A DNA stretch of 64,000 bases from Tricharina praecox (taxonomy: Eukaryota): assembly GCF_024521635.1 (NCBI RefSeq), contig NW_026250405.1, positions 1,054,001 through 1,118,000 on the forward strand, written 5' to 3'. Below the pieces are notes generated by a model. It was not told the origin of the DNA. It saw only the letters and a list, made by a program, of their open reading frames with translations, and made no database searches. Shown here in pieces: positions 17,605 through 43,349 of the stretch. Position numbers and translations under genes: made by a program. Numbering within the stretch: position 1 is the first letter of the stretch; every line of letters starts with the position of its first letter.

Positions 17605-19504
17605 CTAACAGGCTTCAACCACAAGCGCCTCAGGAACGAGTCTTTCGTCGATGGTAGCCATCGCCAGAGTAGTGTCCGCCTCCTCCACTTCCTTCTCCTC
17701 GTGCAGCTTGGCTGAGACCATCAGCTCCTCCATGTGCTGAATCAGACCGTACCAGAGATATCCGGGGCTGACGATCTCGACATCAAACTCACGGACCATG
17801 TTGGAGATGAACTTGATGAAAGCCGTGGTGCTCAGGTGACGGCCAATGCACACCCTCGATCCAGCTCCCCAGGTTATCCATCCAGCCTCGAGGTAGTTCC
17901 TCATGGTTCTAGGCAGTCCTGTTCCATCCTTCGCGATCTCGGTGGGGTGGTTGCCCAACCAGCGCTCGGGCTTGTACTCCTCCGCATCTTCGCCGAAGTA
18001 TTCCTTGTTGATGTTTGTAGGCCAGCCGGACATCGAGACGACGTAGCCAGAAGGAATGAAGAAGTCGTTCAGCCGGCAGCCGATCTGCGGCACCTGGCGG
18101 CCGAGTGAGAGACCGAAGGTGGGGCTCAGACGCAAAGCTTCCAAGATGGCTGCCTCCAGGTAGGGGACGCGACACTCTCCAAGCTGGTGCGTGGCATCCT
18201 CAAGCTTGACCGGGACGGAAATGGTGGCAAGCTCCTCGCGGATCTTGGCAAGGACTTCCGGATGCGAATAGATGAGTTTGACAACGGCGGGCAGCGCGCT
18301 GGATGCAACCATGGAACCGGCGCTGCAGGCAAGATTAGCTTTTTTCTTTTTCATGTAAGGGAGCGATACGATGCAAGGGTGCGTGGGGTGTGAGGCATAC
18401 TATATGAAAAACACATTATTGGTGATTCCCTCCGTCCAGTTTCCCTGAGGAAACAACTTCCGGATCTTCTTCTCGCCGGCACGGAACTTGGACATTAGAT
18501 TATCTGGAAGATGATCGGCAATCTCGTTGATGCGCTCCTACGTTCAATGTCAGTTTTTCGTATGACCCCTATCCGAACAACTCTGTGGACACTAACGTTC
18601 TTGTGGGACTCTCCCTTGCTGTACCCCAGACTCCAACGGAACAGATGCTCGAGCTGGCTGTTCAGAACACACTTCCTGATGTAACGGGTGGTGATGTCAA
18701 GGGCGAACGGGATGGGAACCAACGATCCGACCACGTTGAAGATCACACGAAGGGCACCGATCGCACCGTCTTGGTCCGAGCCCGCGGCGCACAGTCCGTT
18801 CGAGTAGCCACTCATCAGGAGTGTGGCCAGATCGAACATGAAGAAGTGAGTCCAGTGGTTCAAGCAGGCAACTTTTCCTTCGGCGACCACGTGCTGCTTG
18901 AAACCTTGGGTGAACGCATCGACAGCCTGGTACACACGAAATCGAGTAAGCAACGCATCACCACCACGGCTACTGGGGATTCCGTGCAACATACCTCATC
19001 AAAGTGATGCTCGAGCTTGGAGAGTCCCTTCTCCGAGTACGGGTGCGAAAGCGCATACTTGCCCAACCTAGCCCTGGCCGGGTCCGTCTCGAAGACAAAG
19101 TTGAAGTCCTCATTGAACAGTCCGGTCTGGAACGACTTGGCTTTGAGGAAGAAGCTCTCTTCCTTGCGCTCGTCGGCAAAGCTGTAGAGCGTGCCACGCA
19201 GCATCGGATCCGAGATGGAGACCTCGTCCGGTGAGATCCATACAATCGTGCCGTACTGCTTATGGAGCTCGATCAGCTTCGCGTGCCAGTTGCGGCGGAC
19301 GTTGGCGTAATATGCGCGGTACCAGCAGGTGAATCCGGCAAGGAAGGGACCTGGGACACCCTGCCGTCTCATCGGAGAGTTGACATAGCGGATGACTCGG
19401 CGGCCAAGCTGGTAGGCGAAGAAGCCGGCAATGAGAAGCGCCAGGTTGCGCTTGAGTGCCGTGAAAACAGCGGCGAAGAGCTGGAGGACAATTTCATGAA
19501 TCAT
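17605..19504 (-). CDS. Cytochrome P450, 564 aa, with atypical I-helix
   Basis: Exons 19504-18995, 18926-18597, 18537-18401 and 18322-17605, with canonical introns, total 1695 nt. N-terminal TM anchor, VPGPFLA hinge, EALR (ExxR), PERW, heme motif WGAGSRVCIG. The I-helix reads FIYAGSMVASS. An acceptor immediately before the ATG suggests a 5'UTR intron (donor GTATGT at about 19870). Confidence 0.93.
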
Positions 19505-22500
19505 CTGCAGGACAGGGAGGTTATGTCAGTGCGTGCTGCAATGTTGGATAAACGTGGATCAACTTGCCTTGGCGAAGTGTTTATGAGGCGAATCGAATTG
19601 AGCGAATCGTCAACGAACCAAAGGGAGATAAAGGGGAGTTGCGTCGGGAGGGGGTTACGCGGGAAGGATTGGGCGGGGATGATTCTGTCTTTCTTTCGAT
19701 GCCCGAGAAAAGAAGTTGGTTGTGACTGGCGTTGTCGGTCAGCAACGGATCCGACGACGGCGAGCGGGAACTCGTGATTCACGACAAGTTTACCCTACCC
19801 GCAAAACATTCCTCGGAATGCTTCTCGGGCAATGGGTAAAGATGAAGTTGAAAATAAGTCAGGTACATACCTTCACTTCACGAGGTATCGTGAATGACCG
19901 GTGCAGAATTCAAACCCGGTGCAAAGTGGATGAAAAAAGAGGTAGAGTGGTGAAAGTGGAAGAGAAAAGGAGGAGTTGAGGTGTATTATAGGTGCTGAGC
20001 CTGGAGGAAACAGCGAAGACTTGGGAGAGTGAATTAGGAGTGGGGCAGTGAATGGGGGTGGGGTGAGAAAGCAGATGGATGACGGAGGAGTGAGTGGAGT
20101 GAATTGAGGGGAGGGAGAGGAGGGGAGGGGAGCGGAGGACGAGGGAGATGGGAAGTCAACAAGTACAAGTACTCGGTGTTGGTTTTGTCTGTCTATGCGG
20201 TGATCGCGGGTGGAGCTTGTGTTTGTTGTACACCATGTCCGTGTGTGCTATATGTATTGACTGTATGTATTGTACATGCGATGAGGTACCCAGATGATGG
20301 CACGCTTCCATCTGTGATCCCCCAACACGGCGGCGGCGAGCACCGCTGGAGGCTCTCTCGCTCTCTCGTATCTGCTGCCCGCAACTCTGTTTACGGCACG
20401 GACATTTTCGCAGGGAAGCAGGTACATAGCGAACCTACCATCTTCTACCATAAACCCTTCACTGTTGCATGCACTCCACTTTGCTATATAACACCAACAA
20501 GCACCCCCCCACAACAACCCTTCACCATCCCTTCCCTGGCCCTTTGCTTTTTTCCCCACAGACCTCAGGCGAATCGAGAATCCTCTGCATGTGCAGATAT
20601 TGGACTGCTCCAACGACATCAGCGAGTTCTCCTTATTCCGTACCATTCCGTAATCCCGGGTCCGCCCCGGCTGGCTGCATCGCAGCAGACACCACCCACC
20701 CAACAATCCGAGAGCATCCTCCCTTCGTCCTCGCTGGTCATCGGCGACTTCCCTCCCTTCCTTCGTTCCCATCCCGGGGGACGATCATCCTTCCCTCTTT
20801 CCTTCCTTCCGTTCTCTTGTCGGAGTATATTAGTATTTTAGAGGTCGCGGAGAGAAAAGATAAAGATAAATAAGATCCTAGCTTAATAAGATCCCAGCTT
20901 ATACCGTCGCTAGCTCGTGATGGCTGAAACAGATCGTGGACAAGGATGGGGACGCGGGCTGGGGACGGGGGACGGGGGCGGGATAGCGGCGGTTATAGGG
21001 GGGTGTGGTGCGGTGTAGGGGGATAGAACAAGCGCAATATTCGAGCAGGCCTGGGCTGGTCACGACGGGGATGCAGTCTCGTCAAAGTGATTCTCCTTAA
21101 GGGTGCGGTAACTACTTGTTGCCTATGTTTGTCAGACTCGAGAGCTCTCAGCCGCAGGAGGGCCGGGAAGTGCAGTTTCTCGGCTTCACTTTGCCACCTT
21201 GGCATCATGAATCGATATCAAGGAGTCGACCGCACTTCGCTCGACTGAGCAAGTAGTCACTCTACCTGCACCATCCGAGCCGCCGCAACGCTTCTCTTCG
21301 TCTACCTCTTTCCTGCTCCTCCTCCTGCTCCTCCTCCTCCTCCTGCCTCCTGCCTCCTTCAAGCTCTTGTCTGCTTGTCTGCCTGCCTTCCTGCCGCAGT
21401 GCCGCGGTGCCTGCTGCAGAGCCTGCCTACCCGCCCGCCTGCCTGTCTGCCCGACACCTAGCTGCCATCAACCGCGCCGACTCCATCCATAACTACTCCT
21501 ACGAGAAAGAACCGAACCTGTGGGTGCGCGTAAACGCAGCTCCCCCTTAGAAAGGGAGGCCATGTGCTCATGCTGATGCTGTGTCCAGAAATTCAGCTCT
21601 ATATATTTCTGCGGCTGCAGTCAGGCCGGCAGGCATGCAGGCGGCAGATCGGCTAGACTTCGAATCATCTCGACTGGACTGGGCTCCACATATTCACCGT
21701 AGTGCCCTGCCCTGCCCTGCCCTGCCTTGCACGTACTGCACTGCAGGGCAGGGAGAGGGAAAGTCGGAGCGGGGGACAACTGTTGCCGCGTGGTCGACGA
21801 CCGGCCAATGCTACAATCCGTGGGTTGTGCGTATGTGGGATGGAGGCAAGGCGGTATGACAGTGCATTGTCAGGGCAGAAGTTGTGGGCCGGGAAGGAGT
21901 GAGGAGATGGTCGTACTGGTATCACGCATGACCATCAGATAGTGGTTCATTGGGGTGGGTGAAGGGAGGGGGAGGGTGGGTGGGGAGCGAGCGGTTTGGT
22001 TCGGTTCGTGTCCAAATCACTCCCTCACCTCCGTACATACAAACGGCGTCACTGATTTCACCACTTTGCCGCGTGACAGCCCCTCGGGAAGGATAAAAAG
22101 GTGAAGGGAAAGATAAACTTTTGCGCACAAATAAATCCTTCTGCATTATGTGTATCTAAACTTCAATTTATCCCAGACTCCTGGAACTCCTACCTACCCG
22201 TGTAACTAAGTACGTAGGATGTAGGTACCGTCTCTTCTCCTTGCCAGAAAGAAAAAAAGCTCCATATTCCGCAATCCCCGGCTGGCGGGAGAGAAAATAC
22301 GGATGACATGGCATGGTGAGAACATGGCGAAAGCATGGCAAGCCACGAGGTGGATGGATTCCAGCATACGCAATGTACTGCATGGTACAGTATAGTACCT
22401 AGGAAGCCAAGTTCTGCACAGCGCCCCGCAGTCAGCCGCCTTCAAAATCGCAGTCAACTGGAAGGATAGTTGCACGCGCAGTGGTGAGGAGTACTCTACA

Positions 22501-24312
22501 TATGATGGCAGCAGCAGCAGCAGTTCGTTCGGGTTCGTTCGGTTGCCTTATCACGATGCAGCAGGGTGCAGTGTCTGTCGAGAAACTGACTGCAGGAAGG
22601 TGATTGGATCGGAAGGAAGGCCGGACACCAAGGGCAGCAATGCAGCTTGGAGAACGATCATCGACGAGAGGATTTAGGAACTCAACGCACGGCGCAACGC
22701 AGCGCGACGTTCAACAGCGCCCCGTGGGGTATGTACCCCACCCTTCAAAACTCTAAACATAGTGTCCCTGGTGTTGGTGGTAGTGGTTGTCGTTGTGGTG
22801 GTGGTGGGTGTAGGAGTAGTGGTGTACCAGTGAGGGTGTGGTGGTAACCATGGCGGTGTGGTGGTGGTGGTGTGTTACTGGTGGTTGACGGTGACTATAG
22901 TAGTGCTGGTGATCGATCGGGATCAGGTCTGTCTCGGGAGAAGGAGTAAAGGTGATCATCTCCCAGACAGATAAAGCAACTGCCACGTTTCTCTGTTTCT
23001 GGAAGCCTTCCATTGGTGTACCGACAGTCATAAAGTGAAGTCGAACATTGCCGGCCCAGTGTCACTCCGGATCAGATGCATCGGCAAAGGCCTAGTTTGG
23101 AGGCGACCGTGAATCTGAATCATGACAACATCCATCCTCACCCAACCAAATCTCGAATCTTGTTTTTCCCTTGCATCCCTCGTTCTGGGCGGTTCGATTT
23201 TGGAATGCTACGGCTGATCCTGAGCGGATGGGGAGTTGATATCGTGGTACTGACTGAGGTGAAGCCTGACCTTGAAACCAACGGTGGTGAAGACCAATAA
23301 GATGAAATTCTAACTACTGTTAATGCTCCGGGAAGCTGCCGTATGCAATTCCAGAAGCTAGCCATCTTTTCGAATCGAGTGTTGACAGATTCGGCAGTTG
23401 GGAGGCAAAGGACCGAAGTGGGAGAGTAGAAGCTTTGCAGACCTCTTAAGATCATCGTGGTGTCGGTGTTGGTTTATTTCAGTTCCGTGCAGTAACACTG
23501 ATGTTCATGCGGGTCAATCTCCTTTTTTTTTCTTTCTTCCGCCGCAATCGTGTTAGCCAGAGACAGTCGACGAAGTTGCAGAATAGTGGTAACTTCCGAG
23601 AGCATCGATGCTGAATCCAGGCCTCAATCTCACCCGCGTCAACGTACGTGACGGTACTTATGTGGAGTAGTGGTACTATAGTCCGACCGCCGCGTCCTGG
23701 TCGTCTTCGCCGTCCATGCACATACCTTGTGATCACTCTCTCCCGCTTTCCCTAGCCCGTTCGTCCGACGGCATGCGCTTCAACATGATAGGCCAGTTTC
23801 CTCATATCGTTCGATGATTCTCCGTCGGCATTACCGACGGCGGGGGTGGTCGTGAGATCGTTCGATTATCTCCGCCATGGCAGCCACCCACATACGAAAG
23901 GGGGTTCGTGTCAAACAGCCGAAAGCGCAGTCAGGCAAAGTGTAGCGAAGGGCGGGAATCGAACGTGCCAAATGTTGGCTGCGTGAGAACACGGCAAAGA
24001 GACAGGGTCAGGAAGAGGAGGAGTTGCCTACCCTGCGGGCTATTCGCACTAAGCTGCCATTAGGAAGTTATTAAGATGCGGCTCTCCAAGGGCTGCACGG
24101 GCCATTCATAGGCCATCACTCAAGCTTCACCACTGGAGAGCTGGCGCAGGGAATCCGAATGGGTACTCCCAGCCGCCATGGTCTACCTAGTGAGGTCGCC
24201 TGCGACCATAGATTGGTGTTCTCTCTATAGGTCTTCCCAATTGTTAAACAAAAAACAAAAACCGAATGTGGACCTACTCTGAGAGGAGCATCCGAGGATA
24301 GATAGATAATCA

Positions 24313-24505
24313 GATAAGATAGGGCGAGGGGCTAGTCGAATCGGTGGATCCGGATGGTGGCGATAGCCGGGCTAGCCGGATCGGGTGGCTCCGAACGTTG
24401 TAGGAAGTAGTGGAGGAGAGCTGAGATGGCTCTTCGAAGCTGAATGAAACCTCAACTTCGCCATCATCTTTCATTTTCACCGTTTCCCTTTCAAGACTAC
24501 GTCAC
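24313..24505. repeat. Dispersed repeat (partner at 15235-15385)
   Basis: See the partner copy. This copy has an internal duplication of GGGCTAG..G.ATCGG.GG.TCCG. Confidence 0.85.
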
Positions 24506-24666
24506 CTACACATTCGAGTAGCCCTACACCCTCTCTATGCATAGAGAACTCACCCCGGACAGAAGCGTGAACGTGAGTTAAATAAGGAATAAAACTTTGA
24601 TGCATTATCGGTCCGTTGCTTTGATTGCGCGTTTCATTTCCCATTTCATTTTCATTTTCCCCAACA

Positions 24667-25742
24667 TCAATGGCTATTCCCCAACTTTCCTCCAGCCTTT
24701 ACGGCCTTCTCGACTTTCTCCATCTCAGCTATGGCTGCAGTCCAATCCTGCCACTCCTTCTCGCCTCCCGGAAGTCCTCCGCTCAACGGCAACCTCGTCC
24801 CGTCCCTATCACCGAATCCGGCCACCCTGGACACCGCCTCCTTGATTCCGACGGTCCCAAACTTCACCACCAACTCCTCAGCACTCGACACAGCCCACTG
24901 AAGCCTCCTCGCCTCATCCTTCTCCACTTTCGTTACCGTGTCCGCTGTGGCCAAGTCAAACAACCGCACCACACTCGCCGGGAAGAACGCCGCCAGTCCG
25001 TCGATAGCACCGGCACACCCCATCTGGACAACCGAGAACAGGTGCTGTCCCAGCCCCGAGAATAGCGCGAACCGGCTGTGGTCGATCTCCGGGTCAAGCG
25101 AAACCTGTGTGTGCACCGACACATCGCCGTGGGAGAACTTGGCACCGACGATGTTGGGATGTGCGGCGAGCGTACGGATGGTCGAAGGTGTGATCTTGAT
25201 GTTGTTCGATACGCCGGGATAGTGATATCTACACATTTCTGTTAGCCATTGAGGGCCAATCGTTCCGAGTTGCATTGTCCTTACATTAGAATGGGAATTG
25301 GGCTTCTATCCGCCACCGCCTGGTACCACTTGGTTATACCCTCCTGATTCGCAGCGGTGGCGAAGTAACCCGGTGCCAGCACCATACCCCAATCCGCACC
25401 GGCCTCTTTACTCTCGACCAATAGCTCGACCGTCTCGGCGATACTATTCGTCGCAGTGCCCGCGATCAATGGGTAATCCGGGAATCCGCCTTCCGCCAGC
25501 CCTTCTCTTACCGCTTTGATCATGATCTTGCGTTCGCTGCGAGTGACGTGCACCGCCTCGCCGGTGGATCCGAGAAGCACGAGGCCCTTGATTCCCGCTC
25601 TGGCCAGAAAGAGGGAGTGCGCGACCTGCGTGTCCGTATCGAGCGGTGGAACGACGGGATCATAATTCTTCGAGTCCCTTCTCGCAAAAAAAGTCGGGAC
25701 GGGGACGAATATTCCGTGGGGAGGAGCAGCGGAGACGAGCAT
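24667..25742 (-). CDS. DHDPS-family class I aldolase, 339 aa; probable 2-keto-3-deoxy-L-rhamnonate aldolase (LRA4-like, by context)
   Basis: Exons 25742-25285 and 25228-24667 (56-nt intron GTAAGG..GCTAAC..TAG). Motifs GLVLLGSTGE, LIYHYPG (catalytic Tyr) and NIVGAKFS (Schiff-base Lys). Substrate is inferred from the neighbouring genes. Confidence 0.88.
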
Positions 25743-25890
25743 GATGGCAGTGGATAATGGAGTCGGTTGATTTTACGGGAATTGGAATTCAGAAGACGGC
25801 CATCGCTAGAAGATAAAGCTCATACCCATTTCGTTACTTCGTTGTCATCATGATCGCCTGTTCGGCACAGGGCTATGATGCTCAACCACT

Positions 25891-25907: not shown

Positions 25908-26940
25908 AGCCCTTCGGGGCAACGAAACCACGACCACGCGAGCCGAGGTGGTCCACGACAGGAGGCTAGAGGCGGCACGTCGGCCACCAGTCCACTTCTC
26001 TATCCGCTGCGCTCGAAGGGAAGATTTGGAGCCTATATCCATCTACAAAGCTAAGAACTTCACGATGGATGAGATGTCGCCCCTGTTCTTTTGTCGATAT
26101 TACTCTGCGCATGCGCGCCTCCCCGGGCGTCCCTACGTACGCCTTGCCACGGGGTTTAATATCTAACGCGATGATCATCGCCTTGTCTCGCTTCTCTCTT
26201 GGCTGTTTAAAGGGAACAAGTAGTGTCCGCGTACATAACACGGTGAGTGCTTCTGTATTTGGATGTCCCAAATACCGGGAACGCCTGGAATGGAAGGAAC
26301 AAGAAGCGCGCGGTGAGTAAGAGTGTTAAGCGATGATTCGGTGGAGGGTTTTTTTTTGCGATCTATGAGACGTTTACTCTTTATGGAGAGTAGTGAGCCG
26401 CAGCTCATAACCATCTGCAGGTCACCTGCACGATCGATCCCTTTGCCTTGTGCTTCAGCCGTTCAGCCTTGGGCGAGTGATCCAGCGCAAACTGTCCGCA
26501 TACCCGTATCTCATCAGCCTTAGAATTACCCGCGGTTGTACCTGTACTCCCGAGTTCCTACTCCCGCCTGGCCTATCTCCGCCGACGCTCAAAGTCTTGG
26601 GATTCTGCCGGATGACTTGCTGGCGGTAATGGAGTTTAGGATGACATTTATCCTTCCTTTCAACGTAGCCGCCTCTTCCATAAGCACTCTCGCCAGCTGG
26701 GTGTTGATGGCATAAGGCAAACGCATGTAGGCATGAAGGAATGAAGACATGCAGGCGGTGAAGTTTACTTTCCCCTTCAAGCAACCCTGACGACTTGATC
26801 GACTTGTTACATTGGAAGAAATCATATTTTGTTTACTGCGTTTGCTTTTTATTGATGTTCTCCGCCCGCAGATGAGGCATCCCTCACACACCAATACCCA
26901 AAATCTCTCCAAGAATGGATACTCCAACCCGCCACGACCA

Positions 26941-27907
26941 CTACTGCAAATTTACAAACAACCCTCCGTCTACTAAAATCTGCGCACCAGTGACGTATCC
27001 ACTGAGACTACTCGCCAAAAACACGGCGGGGCCCACAATATCCTCAGGCACACCCGTGCGTCCTAACGGGATCCTCCCCTCCATATACTCCCGCTTTTCA
27101 TCATTGCTCAAGTCCTCATCATTCAACTGCGTGCGAATCGTACCCGGAAGGATCGCATTACAGCGAATGCCATGCTTCCCCAGTGCCGTAGCAGTGGACT
27201 GCATGAGCGAAAGCACGCCCGCCTTGGTGGGCGTGTAGTGCGTCTGCCCCGCGCCGCCCACGAGCGCGGAGATGGAGGATATGCCGATGATGCTTCCGCC
27301 CTTGCCCTGGGCGACCATCTGTTTTGCGGCGGCCTGGGTTGCATAGAACGCGCCGTCGAGGTTTATGCGCACCGTCGAGGAGTACAGCTCCTCCGGCAGC
27401 GTGAGGAAGTCGGCGAACTGGCAGACACCCGCGTTGGAGACGAAGACGTTTAGTTCCCCGAAGGCGTCGACGGCGGCCGCGATGAAGTCTAGCGACGTCT
27501 GCCGGAGTGAGATGTCGCCGGGTCGCGCGAGGAAGCGTGGAAGCTGGGAGGTGCACGGAATGCTGTCGATTGCGGTGGCGAGGGACTCGATTTCGGCGGA
27601 TTGAGAGGGGCCAAGATAGTTTACGGCTACGTTCGCGCCGTGTTGCGCCATTCCGAGGGCGATTGCACGTCCTATTCCGGTTGCGGCGCCGGTGATGGCG
27701 ACGGTTTGGCCAGCGAGGAGCTGGGGTGTAGAGGGAGTCGGCGGGATTGTTGTGGTTGTGGCTGTGGGAGCTATTGTGGTATCGGCCGTGGGGGTGATCG
27801 ATGTGATGGTCTGGGATGATGTTGTAGCGGTTGTGGAAGCTGCGGATGTAGAAGCGGATGATATGGGAACTGCGGCTGCGCTTATGGGGGCGTCTACACT
27901 GCTGCTG
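26941..27907 (-). CDS. LRA1: L-rhamnose 1-dehydrogenase (SDR) terminal exon with N-terminal S/T/A/P linker; requires an upstream exon
   Basis: TGAATGIG Rossmann motif, FVSNAGVCQF, SSISALVGGAGQTHYTPTKAGV (YxxxK), YVTGAQILVDGGLFVNLQ, typical of fungal LRA1/lraA. The ORF-track start at 27984 is TTG, and the first in-frame ATG lies after the Rossmann motif. Branch site GCTGAC plus CAG acceptor at 27908. Confidence 0.9.
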
Positions 27908-28122
27908 CTGCGAAGTAAGTCAGCCACTGAATGCACGTAAATCTCATTTGACTGCAAATGAAATCCATTTCTTCTAGGCCGCAATGCAACCCTTCATCAT
28001 CACATATACAGTAACGTACAAGCGGATAACCAAGTGCCTCCACATGTCCACATCTAGTACAAAGCCAAAAAAAAAAACAGACACACGCGCGCATCGACCT
28101 TCCAACCCCCCACCAATCGCAC

Positions 28123-29469
28123 TTACTTGCTAACACCATTCGTAGCCTGACCATTCGTCTTCACCTCCTGCTCCTTCTTCACGCTCAACGGTCTCTCGGG
28201 GCTGGGGCTCAGGATGCCTGCCGCATCGATCAACCGCGCGCGCGGGTTGAGCGTCATTCCGAATCCCGGCTTGTCTAGTACGCTCACCGCCATCTTTCCG
28301 TTGACGGGTATGGGCTCGTCTAGGAACATGTCTCCAAACACTGGCATAACGGACTTTCCGTCGGGGGAGTTGGCGAGGTATTCCTGGAACGGACAGTTGC
28401 TCTGAGAAACCACGTAGTGGTATGAGTACGGCCCGCTAGCGTGAGGGACAACGGGAATGTCGTATGCGGCCGCCATGGCGGTGACCTTGAGGAGCTCCGT
28501 GAGACCGCCGACCCACATCACATCGGGCTGTACGATGTCGAGATTGCGGCCCTCGATCAGCTTTCGGAAGCCGTATTTGGTGTACTCGTGCTCGCCGGTG
28601 GTGAACTTGAGCTGCGGGAGCGCCTGCTTGAGCTGCTTGAAGCCGTCAAAGTCATCGGGGTGCAAGACCTCCTCCCACCAGTTGATGTTCAGGTCGAGGC
28701 AGGCGGTGGCCAGTTGGATCGTGTAGGGCACCGTGAGCGCCATGTAGCAATCTACCATCAGCGGGAAATCCGGACCGACGGATTCACGGTGTTTCCGGAG
28801 GAACTCGATATTCTTCTTCAGGCCCACGTGGCCATCGTCGGGACCGTACGGCAGCGGCACCTTCGCGCCGAAAAAGCCCATCTCCTTCGCCGCCACGGGC
28901 TCGGGGGTGGTGCAGTAGAAATCCAACGTCTCCCGCGTCGCGCCGCCAATCATCTTGTACACCGGCTCATTCCGGATCTTTCCCAGCAGATCCCACAACG
29001 CCAGGTCAACGACGGAGATGGTGGCGATCGGAAGTCCCTTGCGACCGTAGAACATGGTCGCGCGAAACATCTGGTCCCAGAGGAGGTTCAGGTTGCGCGG
29101 ATCCGCGCCGAGAAGGAATCGCTCGAGGTGCTGGGAGACGATCCAGCATGCCGGTGGCCCGCCGAAGCCGGTCGCGAAGCCGGTTGTGCCGTCGGTCGCT
29201 GTGATTTCGACACAGAAGGAACCGAGTACGTTGATACCCCAGGATGTGCGCGAGGTCTTGTAGGCCGCGAACTTGGACATGGGAGTTGCGATGGGGGAAT
29301 CGATAAGCCTGCATCGTCAGAGATAAGCCCACCACGGCGCGGAAGAGGGGAACTGAGGGGAAACAAACCAGTGGCCTCCCTCGACATTGTGGTAATCACC
29401 GCCGGAGCCTGCTCCATCGGTGATGAAGGTACGGATGGACTTGATCGTGGGGAATTCTTTGACGGACAT
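28123..29469 (-). CDS. LRA3: L-rhamnonate dehydratase (enolase superfamily, mandelate racemase subgroup), 428 aa
   Basis: Exons 29469-29369 and 29308-28123 (60-nt intron). Motifs GGDYHNV.GGHWLID, SRTSWGINVLGSF, KVPLPYGP, MVDCYM, WWEE, TTGEHE, VVPHAS, FQEYL. The stop TAA overlaps a GTAAGT donor at 28126. Confidence 0.93.
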
Positions 29470-32400
29470 AGCTGCGGATAGTGAAGAGTGAAATGAATAG
29501 AAGACAGAGGTATGAACAGCACAAGACGGCGAGATTAAGTATGCAGTAGGAGACTGCAAGGCAAGCCTGAACAGGGAAGAAAACGGAGACGTTTCCAAAA
29601 CTGACCTCCCTTCGCCTCGCCCGCTTGCTCACATACGCACGCACGCGGGTTCGGTTCTCCTCAATCTATCTCCATCTCCACATGCCGTCGTTTGCTTCAG
29701 CTAGCTCGTAGCAGCAAAGGCGCGTGTGCATGTGGCCAGCTAGGTCTGTCGTCGCAGAGCAGTCTCAGGGCCAGATTGATCGACAGCTCTGCTCAGCTTC
29801 AGTTGTGGGGTTTGGCGCTAGGTGAGGGGCCGGCGATTGAATAATTCCGCTGCCGAGTGCGGGGTCGTCTTGCTAGCCTGATAGATAGCCGGGTGGTCTC
29901 GGTGGGCATTGTCCGAAGCGCCGTGGATGTGGAGGAGGCTGTGAGGATAGGCGGACGGGACATGTGGAGATAGCCGATGGCGTGGTAAGGATTGTCGGTT
30001 GGACATTGCGTTCATGGGTAACTTTGGTGAACCGAGCATCACTCGCGATGACCAGATTGTACAGTCATCATAAGGGTCTGTTAGTTCGAAGCATGGGGGT
30101 ATATGCTATACCACCATCCGCGAATAGCAATCGAGCAGAAGAGAGGCCCGTGATTCTTGCGCTATCTTCTTTGCCGCCAAATGCGGAGCGCTACACCGTC
30201 GGTGGCAGATGCAGCGACATACAGAGTCGCGTAGGTAGCTCGGGGTTTGCTGAGCAGAAGAGGCCCCACCAGCCTCCAGCAGAAACTCGGTTATAAGGGC
30301 ACCACGGTTAGACATCATTCCATCCACATTTCCTCTCTCACCGGCTCACGCACATCCAGTCTATATCCGATACTTCACTGCGGAATCCGGACTCCCGACA
30401 GTCTATCGCAGTGTCGGCACAATAAGTAGAGGGCTCAATCCTTCCTGTGAGCATGCGCGTTGTCTTCTCCACCATCCATACGGCCTGAACGACAAGCTCT
30501 GTGGTTCGTGGACACCGAGGCCAGGAAATACAATTGTTACGCAGCGCCATTGACTGTTCGTGCGCCCACTGGATGCTCGCTCCGCTATTCATCTTTGTCG
30601 ATATCTCAAGGACAGCGAGCTGCCAAACGCCATGGTTGAGCCAAGATGGAGTGTTCGAAAAGCGTGTGGCTTGATGGGTACGAGTCATGGAGGGTACAAT
30701 CGACGGACTACGGACCACGGACTACGGACCAAGGGAGACGTATCACGGGCTGATTCTTTTGTGGTGCTTGGAGTTTTGGTTGCAAAGGCTGGCATGGCAA
30801 TTCTCCACGAATTACTAACGAACGACATATCAATTCGCATGAGTGCTTACTTTAGTGCTTAGGTAAATACCTACTCCCCCCTAGAACCAGAACAATCGGC
30901 TCCCGGAAAGATCACCATCGCAAATAGTTTCATCCCACTACCGTATCCCAAACTCTAACTTGAATAATACCAAGCAAAGAGAAAAGAAATGTGCAGACAG
31001 TTGTCGATGTCGAAAGGTATAAAGTAATGATCGATCGAAAAAAAAGATGCAGATGGACGAGTGGAAGAACGGTTCCGTCCAATCAGATGTATTTTTTTTT
31101 GAGACGGATTCCTCCAAAGCCCATTTTCTCTCCATCTCCCGGATCAACTGCGCGAAGGTGAGGGGGTATTCTGCGTCCTTGCAGCAGATTTCGGTCCACT
31201 AAAAGTCAACTTGGACACCCGTTAGCATGTGCATCTTCAGAGCCTACTCGATAAGCTTCTGATCCGTGACACCCGGTTTGCCGAACGTGAACTGGAAAGT
31301 CAGCTCAACATGTAGCTCCGAGACAAGTGCTAAACCAGGACACGGATAAGGCTGAGCCATGTGGATTTGCACTGCAGGAAGATCAATGCTAGTTAACGGC
31401 ACCATCCTAGTCGTCGTCCGAAGTGGCACTGGGACCCCCATCATGACTGGACTCGTGGAAGCGCATAACTATGAGTCCCTGGCGGTCTGAAATTATGTAT
31501 GCATTTGGATCCTCGCCACCACGCTCGAGCTCTCCCTGGGATTCTGCTCGACCCGGGAACCCTCAGCCAGCTCTTGTCCGATGCGCTCTTGCTGGTCTTC
31601 CTTTTTTAATCGGAGGATTCGATCACCGGGTTCGACAACACTGAGACAGATGTACCCTTGCAGCCTTGCTCTAGACAGTCGCACGCATATGGGGGGAGCT
31701 CTTCCAGAGCATCGGGCTGACTATTCCAGCTGATGGCTCGTTCTTGAAGTCTCTTATCCCTTACGATAATAGCGAGCTCATAGCCGAGGGCGTATATATA
31801 ATCACCAAAAGCTTCGTTATTGTCCATAAGCACCTGAATATTGGTCTTCTGGGTGGTATTCCCGCTCTTATGGGCTACAACTAGACTGACCCGGGGCTCT
31901 TGCTACATACCGCCATACCAATCTATGACACATTAGAGTTTAATAGCATAAAACTTCTAGATATAAGAAGACAGAGAACCAGCAGAAAAAAAATCGTACA
32001 GCATTTTTCCCAGCCGGTGCTCAGTCAGCTGAGTGGTATTCTATGAACCTCCATGTTGAACTGCGAGAAATCACAGACATCGTAACTACTGGGGCTCATT
32101 GCCTAGTAGGCATCACTCTAACAAACAGCGCGAATGTATTATATAAAGATGCGCCCCTGACATTCTCGCGGCGAGTCTTATCTTCACCCCGTATCTGGCC
32201 TGTCACTCGGCGGCTCCCCTATCCGTCGCGCCCTTCGATACAGAAAACACCAACTACTTACGTCAAGCACAGCATCACGATTCACACCTTTACGTACACG
32301 ACTTCACTACAATCGACAGTAAGAATCAGTACGCTATCCAGCATATACCCACAGTAGCAAAAAAAAAGGGACGTTTGTCGGGACCGGAGTGTTACTCGAC

Positions 32401-34815
32401 CTAGGTATGAAATTCCCGCAACGCTTGGGTATTCTGATAGGATACCGCGCTCAACGGAATGCAGATCTAAACGAATGCGTCATATCTGAACTCCAGTCGC
32501 CTTACTAGAGCTGTGACACTACGTAACTTCTTTTTTTTACACTGCGCATTTCGGTATCGGAAATGCTTGTGATAAATTCCTGATTGTATGACTACGCGAA
32601 CCTCCCTAAATGCTGGTGCTGCCATTTTGTTTCGGCAACGATCCATCACTGTTATATTGTGAAGACGACGGATTTTTGTTTTTGCAAGAACACCGGTTCC
32701 GCACCATGCCGAGTGATCGCCAGACGCACGCTTTGCCCCAGATCCATACGGTACTAGTAGAGCCTGGACTCAGCACGATAAGCGAAGCGTACTGGCGGCT
32801 ATATATATGCTAGGTAACTACATCCCAGTATCACACGCGATTGCCTGGCTAATGATTTTCCCCCGTCCCCCCTCTCCCGCTTCTCGGCGAGCCGGTGAGT
32901 CGGAGGGGGTATCTAAATTCGGAGGACCCAGACGGACGAGGACGGAGACGGAGACGGAGACAACCCGGTGGATGGGATGGACAACGAGGAGCCATCACAG
33001 CTTGGAATGGAGGGAGTCATCGCGGCTCAGAATGGACGCCTGTACTCTGTGTAGGAGGGGCGAGGGAGTACCTACCAAGTGCAGTGAGGCTGAAGGCGGG
33101 GGGGGGCTATGTTGATTGCACTGTCTTTGGGGCGGGCCGGGCCGGGGAAAGTAGCGTGCCCAGTGGCGACATCAAGCGGACCTGGCTGGAGGGGTATGTA
33201 CCTTGGCAGTGGGCAGTGGGCAGTGGGCAGTGGGCAGTACCTATGTGTGCATATTGCCATCATGCAGCAGTCGATGTTCAATGAAGAAACGAATAATGGG
33301 AAGCGTGGGGAAGCGGGGGAGACGAGGGAAGCGGGGGACGGGGGGACGGAGGGGGATGGGGATTGAAAGCTGATCATGGTGAATGCCATGCCATGCCGTG
33401 CTATGCTATGCCGTGCTATGCTATGCTATGCTATGCTATGCTATGGCTGGGATGGGCTGGGCTGATCACGGCTGATCATGGCTGGGCTGGCTGAGTTGAT
33501 CATGGCAGGGTTTGCTGCTGCCAACTGTACCTAGGCACCACATATTACATGCCCACCGGACCTGATCTCTGGCTACATACATATTCACACCAGCCGGATT
33601 AGCGGAAGCGTTTACTTGGTTACCGTATATTTATGAGTGCACTGCAAGTCTGCAACCCATCCACGATGAATCATGATTCCGTGAAAAGGAGAAACAAAGC
33701 ACCCGCCCTTCAGGCTTCTGGCCCCCTTGTGAGTCGAAACCTGGGGGATATCGGCTGAGAAATAGCCGCTTACCGGCAAGGCCAGGCAGAGATCGTGATC
33801 CACTTTTCCCCCTAACACCGACCACCGACCACACCGACCAGCGGTACCGTATTGAGTACCGTGTATTTACCCTTTTCAGTTTTGTGGGGAAGACACAATT
33901 AATAGTGTGCATTTGTTTATTTGCTAAGGCTCCTGCCCAACCGTGAGTTGATTGGTGCGTAATTCGAACCGGCATTTATTCGAATTTCGAATCCCTGCAT
34001 TCTCGGAACTCCAGAGTCTAGGTACTGAGGAGGCTACGGTATGGTATGGTATGGTATGGTAGCATTTGTATGTAAGTATGGTACGGTGGAGTGTGGAGTG
34101 GAGTGGAGTGGGGTGGAGTGGAATAGAGTGCTTACATACATACATAGGTAGACCATGGTTCGCAATCTCCCCGCTCGCCCGCTCGTTCACTCGTACGTGA
34201 GTGGTGTTGCGGATGCCCCAGGCACCATATGCATACTAAGCATTCGTGATTGCCCCCCCCCCCGCAATAACTAACTATAGGTCCAATCGTCCCCGCACGT
34301 ACGCTTCACATGGCCGGGGCAGCCGATGCCTAGTGTTCCACACGGCCCCCGCCGAACCATCCGTCTCGATCGTGGAAAGGTACCGTAGCCGCCTAACCAA
34401 ATTCCTCATCCTCGTCCTGTCTTGGGCACCAGTGACCCACATCCGTACTGCGCAGGTAGTTCTAGATTTCTGGAAGTATGTTTGCCCTCCGACTGCAAGA
34501 CCAGTAATTCAGAAATCGAGTGCTATTCCATGAACTGCAGTGTGATATACGAAATACTGTGGTATATATAATTCATCCTCGCCAACAGACAAACAAAAAT
34601 AATAACACTATATACGCCATGCCATGCCATGCCATGCCATGCCACGCGCATGCCCTGTTCCCAAGCCAATCCAGATGCCCCGCATTACTCCCCCTGATAG
34701 CTTTCCCGTTAAAAACAAAAACATAATGGTATCGATCCAACTCCCAAAGCAAAGCAAAGCAAAGCACAACGGCCACCGTGAACAAACAGATAACACAAAA
34801 GGAAAAAACACAAAA

Positions 34816-37368
34816 TCAAACAACCTGAAACAGCCAATCCGCCTCTTCCCCGGCTTGCGGACCGACCCACTGTCCGACGCCCTCACGACCTATGGGGGCA
34901 TCACCCGACACCCTCGGGAAGTTGAACCACGAAAACACATCGACGAGGTCGCCCTGCATATCGCCGCTTCCGACAGGCGTGTGCATATCCAGTCCGAGTG
35001 GCATAGCGGCCTGCTGCTGCTGGAGGCGTGGATCCGGCTGGCGCGAGATCATCACGTCGACCGAGTACGCCGTCATGCGCATGTCGCTTAGGATCTCGAC
35101 GCAGCTGCGGTCCTGGCCCTCGCCCTTGTGCCCGCCCAGCATGAGCTCGTCCAATACTCGCTCGATGATCCCGCCGTACCGGCTCGCGACCTGCCATATT
35201 TTGCCTGCTTCGCGCAGGGCGTCGAGGAAGAGCCGGACATCGGGGATCTCGCCGCTCTCGGCGGTCGAGGCGTGGACGAGGAGGAGCCGTGTGGCGACCC
35301 AGACTGCGAAGGGGAAGGTCGGCCCTAAAAGCGGGATCAGGTTTTGGGCGAGCACGAGTCGCGTGATGGCCGCGATATTTTCGACGGCTGATAGGCAGCG
35401 TTGCGATGCGCTGTAGCTGGGGCCGAAGATGGAGGAGCGGGTGGTGGGGTAGGCGGCTGCGGAGTGAAGACGGATTACTGCGCTGTAGGTGGGAAGGGGA
35501 TGTTAGCGGGAGGGTGGTGAGAAATGGGATGGGGGGTGGGGAGTGGTGGGTGAGTGTGGTGGTGGGGGTGGTGGTTGTAGGGGGTGGTAATGGTGGTGGT
35601 GGTAGTGGGGGAACGAACGTATTGTAGTATGCATGTAGCATGACCCAGCTCGGGTCTACAGCGCCACCGCCCATGTTGAGAGCGCGCGTCAGGTTGCCAA
35701 ACGACATTGGAAGCGAGTATTTCCACGACGTGAGCGCCTTGTCGAGGGTGCGGTACTTTAGCTGCCACGCCTCGACGTCGGAGAGGACATTGATATCGAC
35801 CGTCTCGCGCAGGAATCGGTGGATCCGTCCGAGGATGCCGACGACCTCTATCTGATGGCTGAAGGCCGAGAGCGACTCGACGTTGTTGACGGATTGTGTC
35901 GGTTTCTTGGCCGGTATCTGGAACCACCGCGTCTGCGTGGGCTGGTTGCGGTCCCACAGGCTGTCGCGGCAAGGCAGCTGGCGCTCGACTTCGGTCTCGT
36001 CCAGGGTCAGGTCCAGCGACGTGCCTAGGGACGTGATGACGTCGAGGAGATAGATGACCCAGAACAGTCGCCGTCGGCCCTCCTCCTCGATCCAATCGCT
36101 GCTTTCCGGAAGCGCACGCACGCCCATGGTGCTGATCTGCGGGAGCACCTCCTTCGCGGGCTCGAGTGCCAGCCCCAAGTGCAATGCCATGCGGGTGGTG
36201 AGGGCGAGGAGCCCCCATCCGCTCGGCCCGTTAGTGGAGCCCACGACGTCCAACACCAGGATCGAGATGGCACGCAGCGACTCGACGGATGGAGTCTCGA
36301 GCGCGAAGAAGATGACTTTGCGCTTTGCGACTTGCCGGAAGTTGGTCTTCCATTGCTCCGTCAGGCGCGGGTCGTTGCTGAACCGCAGTGCGGCGGCGAC
36401 AATGGCGTGCATCAAGATTACGTTTGCGGGGCCGACCTCGGTTGGCCGCCTCTGGAAGAGGCTATCGAGCAATGTCTGCCTGTGAAGTATGGGACATGTG
36501 GGATGCACGTGGTGGAAGAAGGCATCGATCAGTGTGCACAGGATGTCATCGGTCGGCAAGTCAGGGTCGAACGAGTGGGAAGTGGACAGATCCGCCATCT
36601 GGCGCGACGCGATGTCGGAGGTGGGCGGGAACGGGAGCTGGGGGGCGGGCGGTGTGTGGGACTGGTTAGACGCCGTTGACGGCGAGGGAAAGTGGTGCGC
36701 TGCTGCGGCATTGTGGTTATGATTGCTCTGCTGATGCTGCTGCTGCTGTTGTTGTTGCTGCGTAGCGTGCAAGTGGGATTCCAGCAGTCGCGAATGCGTC
36801 ACCAGCATGGCCTCGACTCTATCGAGACGCTCTTCGAGCTCGCGCCCGATTCCGGCCCGGAGTCCGGGCTTTTTTTTTTGGCGATAGATACATTCCTGAC
36901 CGTTGCGACTGCACCATCCGCAACTCGGCTGGGACCGGTCACACTTGACCTTCCGTTGTTTGCACGTCTCACACCTGATTGGTTTTCCCACCCCTTGTCA
37001 GCCGAGCGCCACCGACACGCCGCCGACGCCGCCGCCGCCGGAAGGCAGCAGCAGCAGCAGCGGTTTTTTTCTACGCTCTAAGGGCGGGGGACGACTCACG
37101 AAGAAATTCCGTCCATCTTGCGTCGCTTGCGCGCCTGCCCATCTTCATCGCCGTTCGCCTCACGCGAGTGCTTGAGGTCTTCTTCGGACGAGTTGCCGTT
37201 GTCGCTACGCCCACCGTTGGTGACAGTCGACTGTCGTCGCTGCGATTGCTGCTGCTGTTGCTGCTGTTGCTGAAGCATTGTATTCGGCGTCGGTGGTGGC
37301 GCCAGTACTGGCGACTGCGTGTGGTGATGTATGTGTGCCTGGGCAGGAGTGGTTACTGGTGAAGCCAT
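34816..37368 (-). CDS. rhaR: Zn(II)2Cys6 transcription factor with fungal-specific TF domain, RhaR-like, about 763 aa
   Basis: Exons 37368-37100, 36974-35619 and 35482-34816. Zinc cluster CETCKQRKVKCDRSQPSCGWCSRNGQEC, EEEGRRRLFWVIYLLD, AVIRLHSAAAYPT, LGPTFPFAVWVATRLLLVHA, C-terminal DWL. Located beside LRA1/LRA3. The symbol rests on motif recall plus context. Confidence 0.85.
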
Positions 37369-41932: not shown

Positions 41933-43349
41933 ATGCCTTCTACTTCCAGCTTCATCCGCCTCAGCCCTTTCGTACAGCCTTCGCCGTACGGCAAGAAGGG
42001 CTCCAAATCTGTTGCTGCGAGATTCGCGACTGCGACTAGAAAGGACTTCAAGATCGATGAGGAACAGCCTTATGGCGAGGTTCGCCCCCATCTCGTATGA
42101 GGCAAGAGCTTGAGACGGTACTGATCCGAGTAGATGTGGATGGGCGACCACCCGAACGGAATGGCGCACACGCTGGACGGCCAATCACTCGGGTCGCTGA
42201 TTGAATCCGCCCCAGAGGAATACCTGACATCCGCGGTCTACAAGCGCTTCAACAGCGACCCGCACCTCCCGTTCCTCTTCAAAATCCTCAGTTTCGATAA
42301 AGCGCTGCCATTGCAGGCGCACCCTGACCGGGCGCTCGCAAAGCGGCTGATGGCCAAAGAGAAGGCCGCGACAGGCAAAAACGAGACATTCGTGGACCCG
42401 AACCACAAGCCGGAGGTAGCGGTGACGATCTCGGACGTGTTCGAGGGGTTCGTGGGGTTCCGGCCCATCCACGAGATCAAAGTGTTCCTGAAAGTCGTGC
42501 CGGAGCTGCGGAAGCTGCAGTCCGACCACGAAACCGTCGAGGCGTTCCTTGCCGCCCCCGACGACTCCAAGGACGCGCAGAGCCTGCTCAAGACTATGTT
42601 CGCCGAACTCCTGGCTTCAACGCACACGGAGATCCGTGCGTGCTCCCAGCAGTTGCTGACGCATGTCGAGCGCGACGCCGACGATGCCATAGGCGATCTG
42701 GGACGGAAGCAGGGCCTCGCCCGCGTCATCCGTAAGGTCCTCTCGGACTATCCTGAAGACGTCGGGATGTTCGCCGCGGTGTTCTTCATGAACTATGTCG
42801 TGCTGCATAAGGGCGAGGGGATCGCGGTGCCGGCGAACTGCATCCATGCATACCTCGAGGGCGATATCATCGAGTGCATGGCGTGGTCGGATAACATGGT
42901 AGGCGACTACACCTATGGGGGGCGGGACGACTGAGCTGACCGGTGAATGGATTGCGTGCGGACTCGGAGCTCCCGAGGAGCAGAACGACGCTCGCGTATT
43001 CGTCGATATGCTCCGGTATGAAGCGTCGGAGTCGAAAAAGCTGGAGTTGAAGCACGAGAAGTGGAATAAGTCGGACAATGCAAAGACGCAGATCTTTTAC
43101 GCGCCGATGGCCGAGTTCGACCTCCTCAACACCAAGCTCGACGCGGGGGAGCAAGAAGTGGTCGATAAGGGAATCGATGGACCGGCGGTCTTTGTGGTCA
43201 CGCAGGGAGTGGTCACGCTGTGTCGTTCGGATGGAAAAGAGGAGGAGAATCTGCAGCAGGGACAGGTGGTTTTCATCAAGCCTGGGACGGGATTCAAATT
43301 TAAAGCGGAGAATAAGGCGGAGGTCTGGGGATCTTTTGTGGAAGGTTAG
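41933..43349 (+). CDS. Type I mannose-6-phosphate isomerase-like protein (divergent paralogue), about 436 aa
   Basis: Exons 41933-42079, 42134-42898 and 42951-43349. Motifs PYGEMWMGDHP, LPFLFKILS, LQAHP, DPNHKPE, HAYLEGDIIECMAWSDN. The second intron, as needed for homology, ends in TGG rather than YAG. Confidence 0.85.

Follow-up and report, generated by a model that had tools for sequence, protein, structure and literature searches.

How can two enzymes of one pathway come to be read as a single protein when the gene for the first of them still carries its own stop codon? The question is raised by a locus in a 64,000-nucleotide (nt) stretch of the genome of the fungus Tricharina praecox (contig NW_026250405.1, positions 1,054,001 to 1,118,000; hereafter the window, whose own numbering is used throughout). 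Here a coding region for LRA3, L-rhamnonate dehydratase, is followed on the minus strand by one for LRA1, a short-chain dehydrogenase/reductase (SDR) of the L-rhamnose 1-dehydrogenase type. An earlier reading made from the letters of the stretch (the sequence-only reading) had proposed that splicing joins the two. The RNA evidence supports a real fused gene, in which two pathway enzymes are joined by splicing across a former intergenic spacer. We consider it highly likely that LRA3 and LRA1 form one transcription unit, that a splice removes the LRA3 stop to give a fused enzyme, and that at this locus LRA1 is made only as part of the fusion.

A stop codon inside a splice donor

A search of sequencing runs for this locus led to two, X1 and X2, from different studies and under different coded organism labels; neither is registered as RNA, and that they are RNA is the search tool's guess ('RNA?'). 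Three soil metatranscriptomes (X3-X5) contained next to none of the words of the locus. The contigs of X1 and X2 were placed on 26800-29600. The evidence consists of assembled contigs and not of raw reads; such contigs demonstrate presence but not absence, and by the tool's own warning contig depth cannot rank the parts of a gene. The features of the locus, with what each is based on, are as follows.

26941-29469, minus strand: the whole fused gene; its letters, read directly, are as the sequence-only reading described
29369-29469, minus strand: exon 1, 101 nt, the N-terminus of LRA3, with its ATG at 29469-29467 (spliced contigs of X1 and X2)
29309-29368, minus strand: intron 1, 60 nt, GT..AG (joint placed at 29307 to 29368, skipping 60, cut +1, in both runs; shorter side 233 letters)
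28127-29308, minus strand: exon 2, 1182 nt, the body of L-rhamnonate dehydratase, MR_MLE_N plus MR_MLE_C (Pfam, solved relatives)
27908-28126, minus strand: intron 2, 219 nt, GTAAGT donor and CAG acceptor (joint 27907 to 28127 in X2, shorter side 255 letters, and in X1, 30 letters)
28123-28125, minus strand: TAA stop of free LRA3, bases 2-4 of intron 2 (sequence; unspliced-donor contig 27936-28156 of X1)
27727-27907, minus strand: start of exon 3, the Asn codon of the junction and a 61-amino-acid (aa) linker rich in S/T/A/P (composition, predicted structure confidence pLDDT)
26941-27726, minus strand: remainder of exon 3, the SDR domain of L-rhamnose 1-dehydrogenase type, with its TAG stop at 26943-26941 (Pfam, PDB, protein matches)

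Read on the minus strand, exon 2 ends in ...GTTAGCAA at 28127 with GTAAGT directly after it. The donor is AA/GTAAGT (the slash marking the exon boundary), and the in-frame TAA of LRA3, at 28125-28123, sits inside this consensus, where it is read only when the donor of intron 2 is left unused. The intron has a branch-like GCTGAC at 27925-27920 and an acceptor CAG at 27910-27908; exon 3 begins with the C at 27907, which completes the junction codon AA+C (Asn), and the frame from there is open to the TAG. This is the arrangement that the sequence-only reading had put forward, a stop within a GTAAGT donor and an acceptor 219 nt on in matching phase, and every coordinate checked was correct. Joining the exons by script gives 101+1182+967 = 2250 nt, or 749 codons plus stop, and reproduces the coding length and the junction peptide that it had predicted. 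The computed fused product has 749 aa and 79.7 kDa, and that of the unspliced message is a 428-aa LRA3 of 47.2 kDa, with one Lys added before the stop.

The RNA contains this splice. The same two joints are present in X1 and X2, one from 27907 to 28127 (skipping 219) and one from 29307 to 29368 (skipping 60); the ends of the former are CT..AC on the plus strand, that is, GT..AG on the minus strand. In X2 a single contig of 2675 nt comprises 26869-27907, 28127-29307 and 29368-29600, the entire fused message with both introns out. X1 yielded three contigs: contig 1 (1100 nt) joins 26838-27907, the SDR exon, to 28127-28156, 30 letters of LRA3 exon 2; contig 2 (236 nt) runs unspliced over 27936-28156, from exon 2 into intron 2; and contig 3 (1705 nt) has the LRA3 exons with intron 1 removed. 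No letters differing from the window were reported in any of them. The lack of two canonical GT..AG introns marks these contigs as products of spliced RNA, and because contigs of two runs carry exactly the joint of 28127 to 27907, on which the sequence-only reading had staked its case, the presence of RNA with the fused joint is beyond chance. LRA1 messages starting on their own, which that reading had named as telling against the fusion, are found among none of the X1 and X2 contigs; the SDR-exon contigs all continue across the splice into LRA3.

The reading had also held that the same locus yields free dehydratase through intron retention or intronic polyadenylation. For retention, contig 2 of X1 is such a form: RNA capable of yielding free LRA3 exists in X1 alongside the spliced form. 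Intronic polyadenylation found no support, the unspliced contig stopping at 27936, 28 nt before the acceptor, at 15 adaptor-like letters with no run of A, and contigs cannot show RNA ends. The unspliced acceptor (27908-27935) is covered by no contig of either run, which for contigs does not amount to absence, and X2 assembled the spliced form only, with no contig over 27928-28115. The contig depths in X1 are 408.6 for the LRA3-exon contig, 94 for the spliced branch and 86.3 for the unspliced branch, and 230.3 for the X2 contig, none of which are quantities; the similar depths of the two X1 branches and the lack of an unspliced branch in X2 bear on splice control as hints only.

In the mechanism that we propose, a 219-nt phase-2 intron would stand in place of the intergenic spacer of relatives. 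Joining AA/GTAAGT to CAG/C would remove the LRA3 stop and lead LRA3, in frame and through a 61-residue unstructured linker, into LRA1, so that the spliced product would combine step 3 (L-rhamnonate dehydratase) with step 1 (L-rhamnose 1-dehydrogenase) of the non-phosphorylative rhamnose pathway. With the donor unused, one Lys would be added before the stop and the 428-aa free LRA3 would result. We infer that both proteins are made and active. Whenever a phase-2 intron begins with GTAAGT or GTGAGT, an in-frame stop is to be expected. A donor that contains a stop is thus unremarkable alone; the notable point is that this stop is the ancestral one, inherited from a gene that once stood separately. 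The intron also holds a T-run and TGTATA, the elements resembling a 3' untranslated region (3'UTR) to which the sequence-only reading had drawn attention, and it is probably the former LRA3 3'UTR plus intergenic spacer, because in the relatives L002 and L009 (described below) the two genes are separate.

Two observations concern the ends of the message. An AATAAA lies at 26853-26848 (minus strand), about 90 nt past the stop and near the contig ends at 26838 (X1) and 26869 (X2), which fits a normal 3' end, contigs being unable to prove ends. At the other side the contigs extend 222 nt (X2) and 291 nt (X1) past 29600, to about 29890; the message therefore has a 5' leader of at least 350-420 nt ahead of its ATG at 29469.

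The two enzyme halves and the missing start codon

The dehydratase half is readily recognized. The 397-aa product of exon 2 matches PF02746 (MR_MLE_N, expectation value E 2.7e-10) and PF13378 (MR_MLE_C, E 1.9e-41), and its best solved relative is 3fxg/2p0i, 'L-rhamnonate dehydratase', at E 7.9e-207 over residues 4-391 of the 397 in the query. Motifs such as MVDCY, WWEE, TGEHE and VPHAS, candidates for the metal-binding acidic residues and the catalytic His, are present in the LRA3 translation and in fungal homologues. The match data identify this part as a predicted L-rhamnonate dehydratase of the enolase superfamily. Variable low-complexity C-terminal tails are general in fungal LRA3 (P0237, P0244, P0319). 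In the metagenome locus L001 (3500-3600) the tail consists of about seven four-residue repeats of the GKAN type, followed by a conserved NGVTK and the donor.

In the exon-3 product the SDR domain starts at residue 67 (adh_short_C2, E 2.9e-57). Its best PDB match is 7b81/7do5-7, with E 4.7e-82 against 6.8e-45 for the next, and its database neighbours are named L-rhamnose 1-dehydrogenase, the Scheffersomyces stipitis protein being 66% identical. The glycine motif TGAATGIG is nearly invariant across 15 aligned sequences. In the same alignment S211/S213, Y224 and K228 are invariant; these Ser and Tyr-x-x-x-Lys positions are the established catalytic residues of SDRs. By sequence comparison, then, the SDR part appears to be an ortholog of LRA1/RHA1 rather than another SDR.

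What precedes this domain is less usual. In the structure model of the exon-3 product residues 1-57 have no secondary structure and a pLDDT below 50, and strand 1 follows at 68-72 and a helix at 77-88. The sequence-only reading had described a flexible S/T/A/P linker of about 62 aa; it has 61 aa, 80% of them S/T/A/P, and is predicted to be unstructured. Its observation that no ATG precedes the TGxxxGIG motif of the SDR also holds, as exon 3 has no in-frame Met before residue 86, which lies past the glycine-rich motif. A start there would delete strand 1 and the glycine cofactor loop, because the model places strand 1 and the following helix at 68-88. The existing database protein for the locus, P0117, is a 236-aa stump that begins exactly at this Met86. 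As its own start codon has been lost, LRA1 would be makeable at this locus only as a fusion.

Two alternative structures were tried and rejected. From each of the eight intronic ATGs the frame meets a stop within 66 codons without leading into the SDR, and an independent LRA1 start was rejected on this ground. A mini-exon ending at GTTATC was rejected for its poor donor and lack of contig support.

Relatives of the fused gene and competing explanations

Among stand-alone LRA1 proteins the nearest come from Pezizomycetes and are about 260 aa long (Morchella 75%, Rhizina 73% and Tuber 72% identity); in them a Met stands 2-4 residues before a conserved PQLL/KLL segment. A metagenome scan, from which 80 loci were kept, places the window in context. 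Five of the 80 have both genes on one strand with LRA3 first (L001, L002 and L009, and, with larger gaps, L014 and L072); the remaining LRA3-bearing loci have other layouts, with LRA3 mostly on the opposite strand. In L002 and L009 the genes are separate: LRA3 ends in TAG in L002 and in TGA in L009, LRA1 has its own ATG in both, and the spacer is about 420 nt and about 220 nt, respectively. The closest locus is L001, whose LRA3 is 87% and whose SDR is 71% identical to the window. Its LRA3 ends in ...ACCAA/GTAAGT, again with the TAA in the donor; a 334-nt intron with a branch-like CTGAC ends in CGCAG/C, in the same phase, and the SDR frame is open. The sequence-only reading had suggested looking for a conserved splice design in relatives, and L001 shares both the stop in the donor and the phase. 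Around the donor, window and L001 agree in about 24 of 25 bases, and the rest of the intron has diverged. L001 retains an ATG that is in frame and lies 11 codons ahead of the glycine motif; the window has lost this ATG. In an alignment the position of the ancestral Met is lost in the window, P0118 and P0129; the latter two, known from metagenome gene calls and as protein calls only, have upstream frames rich in S/T/A/P. P0120 (83% identical), likewise a protein call only, begins at the internal Met where the window stump also starts. From these comparisons the fusion would have arisen as the spacer between tandem genes became an intron.

Two side observations were made on the relatives. In L009 (2921-3158) the TGA of LRA3 lies in a donor-like GTATGA and a CAG directly precedes the LRA1 ATG, 226 nt apart and both in phase 0. 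Splicing in frame could be imagined there, but there is no good branch site and the arrangement may be chance. Several relatives (P0123, P0125, P0126, P0129 and L001 were compared with 26944-26990) have an intron after ...YV near the SDR C-terminus that the window lacks, and gene calls of relatives with this intron run into nonsense there; the difference points to intron loss or gain within the clade.

Several points weigh against a fused gene with LRA1 as its obligatory second half. The robust bridge over the splice is the single X2 contig; that of X1, with 30 letters on the LRA3 side, is one below the tool's 31-letter bridging rule and is supportive rather than independent proof. As their contigs do not differ from the window, X1 and X2 represent the same or a near-identical organism as the window and not two species. 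The linker region is open also in a second frame (open reading frame 27158-27919), and an open frame there is by itself weak evidence. In L001, known from its DNA alone, the fusion may be optional or unused. Finally, both protein forms are predictions from sequence and RNA, and a second stand-alone LRA1 may exist elsewhere in the genome, the locus survey covering the 64-kilobase (kb) window.

How else might the data be explained? It is very improbable that the joints stem from contig chimerism or from a processed copy in the DNA rather than from mRNA of the locus. The RNA nature of the runs is the tool's guess and the joints come from contigs rather than raw reads, which leaves room for such an artefact, but the same two joints recur in two runs from two studies, they are GT..AG with branch-like sites, keep the frame and show no differing letters, and in X1 the spliced and unspliced forms occur side by side, as they would in RNA. 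We also regard it as unlikely that there are two genes here and that the spliced RNA is a read-through by-product, LRA1 coming mainly from a message of its own (with a non-AUG start or a promoter in the 219-nt stretch) or from a paralogue. Against this are the lack of an in-frame ATG, the loss of the ancestral Met in the window, P0118 and P0129, the conservation of the donor in L001, and the RNA itself: the only SDR-exon contig of either run crosses the splice into LRA3, and no contig lies over the unspliced acceptor, with the reservation on absence made above. For it one can cite L002 and L009, where the genes are separate in the same order, L001, which keeps its LRA1 ATG, and the room for paralogues outside the window. 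Non-AUG initiation, moreover, is documented in fungi (PMC7214817).

A different question is whether the splice is a switch. It could well be, although we lean slightly the other way, that the fusion is constitutive, the unspliced RNA of X1 being ordinary pre-mRNA or splicing noise and free LRA3 not a meaningful product. Intron retention is the common background form of fungal alternative splicing, X2 assembled the spliced form only, and the stop that a phase-2 donor of this kind brings with it need not be an adaptation. The similar depths of the spliced and unspliced branches in X1, which arise from the same node, speak against a constitutive fusion as a hint only; the T-run and TGTATA that the intron has kept, as a 3'UTR would, also count against it. 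The fullest version of the fused-gene reading goes further, and we hold it as doubtful though worth stating. The stop-bearing donor would act as a regulated switch in which splicing competes either with retention or with 3'-end formation in the relic 3'UTR, and so set the ratio of free to fused enzyme; the fusion would be the sole source of LRA1; the long linker would allow SDR oligomers to sit on an oligomeric enolase-type core, giving a single assembly that oxidises rhamnose; and the lineage would record the steps from spacer to intron.

For annotation, the fused gene matters in that the existing call at the locus, the stump P0117, lacks the cofactor loop; automatic pipelines would therefore score step 1 of rhamnose breakdown as missing or broken, though it is fused to step 3. 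For evolution, the loci form a rare series with an RNA-confirmed end point, from tandem genes, through a stop in the donor with the ATG kept, to loss of the ATG, and illustrate a route by which a spacer becomes intronic and a 5' leader comes to encode a protein linker. For biochemistry, this would be a natural two-enzyme protein whose steps, 1 and 3, do not follow each other directly in a pathway that serves pectin utilisation, and as such relevant to channelling, stoichiometry and engineering. The locus is also suited to asking whether a fungus sets enzyme ratios via splicing.

Known systems, database models and neighbouring genes

The fungal enzymes are known from Scheffersomyces stipitis (LRA1/RHA1 and LRA3) and from Aspergillus niger and A. 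nidulans (lraA and lraC) as stand-alone proteins of the same families and pathway, with clustering of an LRA4-type aldolase, as in the window. Unlike them, the window has one spliced frame and an LRA1 without a start codon. In the sections of the two papers that treat them, LRA1-4 and lraA-C are described as separate enzymes from separate genes (PMC5674754, PMC7532622). The sequence-only reading had known of no described LRA3-LRA1 fusion. For the literature this stands, since none was found in a full-text search that excluded supplements. For the databases it does not, as three unremarked fused models from Sordariomycetes are on record. Among 116 long proteins matching the SDR, these three also have MR_MLE domains, all being 'hypothetical protein' models with the dehydratase first:

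P0002, Echria macrotheca, 692 aa: fused LRA3-LRA1 model
P0004, Podospora australis, 703 aa: fused LRA3-LRA1 model
P0022, Cordyceps javanica, 579 aa (shorter): fused LRA3-LRA1 model

They resemble the window in having the dehydratase first and the SDR second in one predicted protein, and differ from it in their short, unrelated linkers and, for P0002 and P0004, in keeping a Met just before the SDR. Known here as automatic protein models alone, they may be genuine fusions or neighbouring genes merged in annotation. If such a fusion does exist in Sordariomycetes, it probably arose independently of the one in the window, because the window LRA1 has its nearest stand-alone relatives in the Pezizomycete proteins of about 260 aa. 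Of 20 long proteins that match LRA3, the Podospora model is the only one of the LRA3-LRA1 type. The 150 best matches of a representative search with LRA3 included no full-length fusion and one protein above 430 aa (P0274, 599 aa), which makes this search uninformative on fusions. No fused model from a close relative of the window was found in the protein searches.

The same searches brought up other composite models. Most of the long LRA3 homologues (16 of the 20, P0387-P0402) are Pleosporales models of 918-988 aa that combine the dehydratase with a UDP-sugar pyrophosphorylase (PF01704); they may be a second real kind of LRA3 fusion rather than merged neighbours, because they recur across many genera. 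P0003, P0006 and P0009, also from Pleosporales, have an amidohydrolase of the LRA2-lactonase type (PF04909) first and then LRA1, and would fuse steps 2 and 1. In 22 of the 116 long SDR matches (Fusarium, Colletotrichum, Lasiodiplodia and others) LRA1 is joined to a Zn2Cys6/fungal transcription-factor domain (PF00172, PF11951); these are probably merged neighbouring genes of rhamnose clusters.

Among systems outside this pathway variant, the bacterial rhamnulose-1-phosphate aldolase/short-chain dehydrogenase also fuses a rhamnose-pathway SDR to a pathway enzyme, and the bulk of the long bacterial SDR matches are of this PF00596 plus SDR kind, so named by their sources. They differ in belonging to the phosphorylated pathway, in the partner domain, in the lack of splicing and in their identity of about 30% to the SDR. 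Fungal alternative splicing that yields two proteins from one gene (SKI7/HBS1; peroxisomal isoforms) is alike in that splice-site use decides the C-terminal part. Where peroxisomal isoforms arise by splicing or by read-through, what varies is a targeting signal belonging to one ancestral gene. In SKI7/HBS1 the alternative part is a domain of one ancestral gene (PMC3597508). In the window, by contrast, an entire second enzyme is added, one formerly encoded by its own gene. Mammalian conjoined genes offer another parallel: one transcript extends over two genes in tandem, and splicing out of the upstream gene's final coding exon skips both that gene's stop and the spacer. Likewise, the genes are separate and in tandem in L002 and L009, and in the window an in-frame RNA spans both parts with the upstream stop removed. 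Mammalian conjoined transcripts are mostly minor isoforms, however, and both genes stay independent, whereas the downstream gene in the window has lost its own start and the fusion would be obligatory for LRA1.

The surroundings of the fused gene contain one further candidate enzyme of the rhamnose pathway, directly downstream of LRA1 on the same strand:

24670-25772, minus strand: DHDPS-family gene in two open-reading-frame pieces, LRA4-like (keto-deoxy-rhamnonate aldolase type; PF00701, E 3.5e-12 and 9.5e-11)

The LRA4-like gene has the same position in L001, L002 and L004; the order LRA3, LRA1, LRA4-like is common to the window, L001 and L002, and L004 has the LRA1 to LRA4-like part. An LRA2 lactonase (PF04909) was found nowhere in the 64-kb window: the domain is absent among 78 window open reading frames scanned with Pfam, and tblastn with the LRA2-LRA1 model P0003 matches the SDR only. 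On either side of the rhamnose genes lie several kb without recognisable coding sequence. In 20800-24700 and 29600-34950, 57 open reading frames of at least 70 aa gave no credible Pfam match, the sole match, DUF678 (E 0.0092), being below the cut-off. About 5.4 kb upstream, at 34904-36997 on the minus strand, is a protein with Zn_clus and Fungal_trans domains, a transcription factor of the Zn2Cys6 type by its domains and no more than a candidate for the RhaR/TRC1-type regulator. Other neighbours are a cytochrome P450 fragment at 17608-18399 (minus strand) and a phosphomannose isomerase at 42134-42931 (plus strand).

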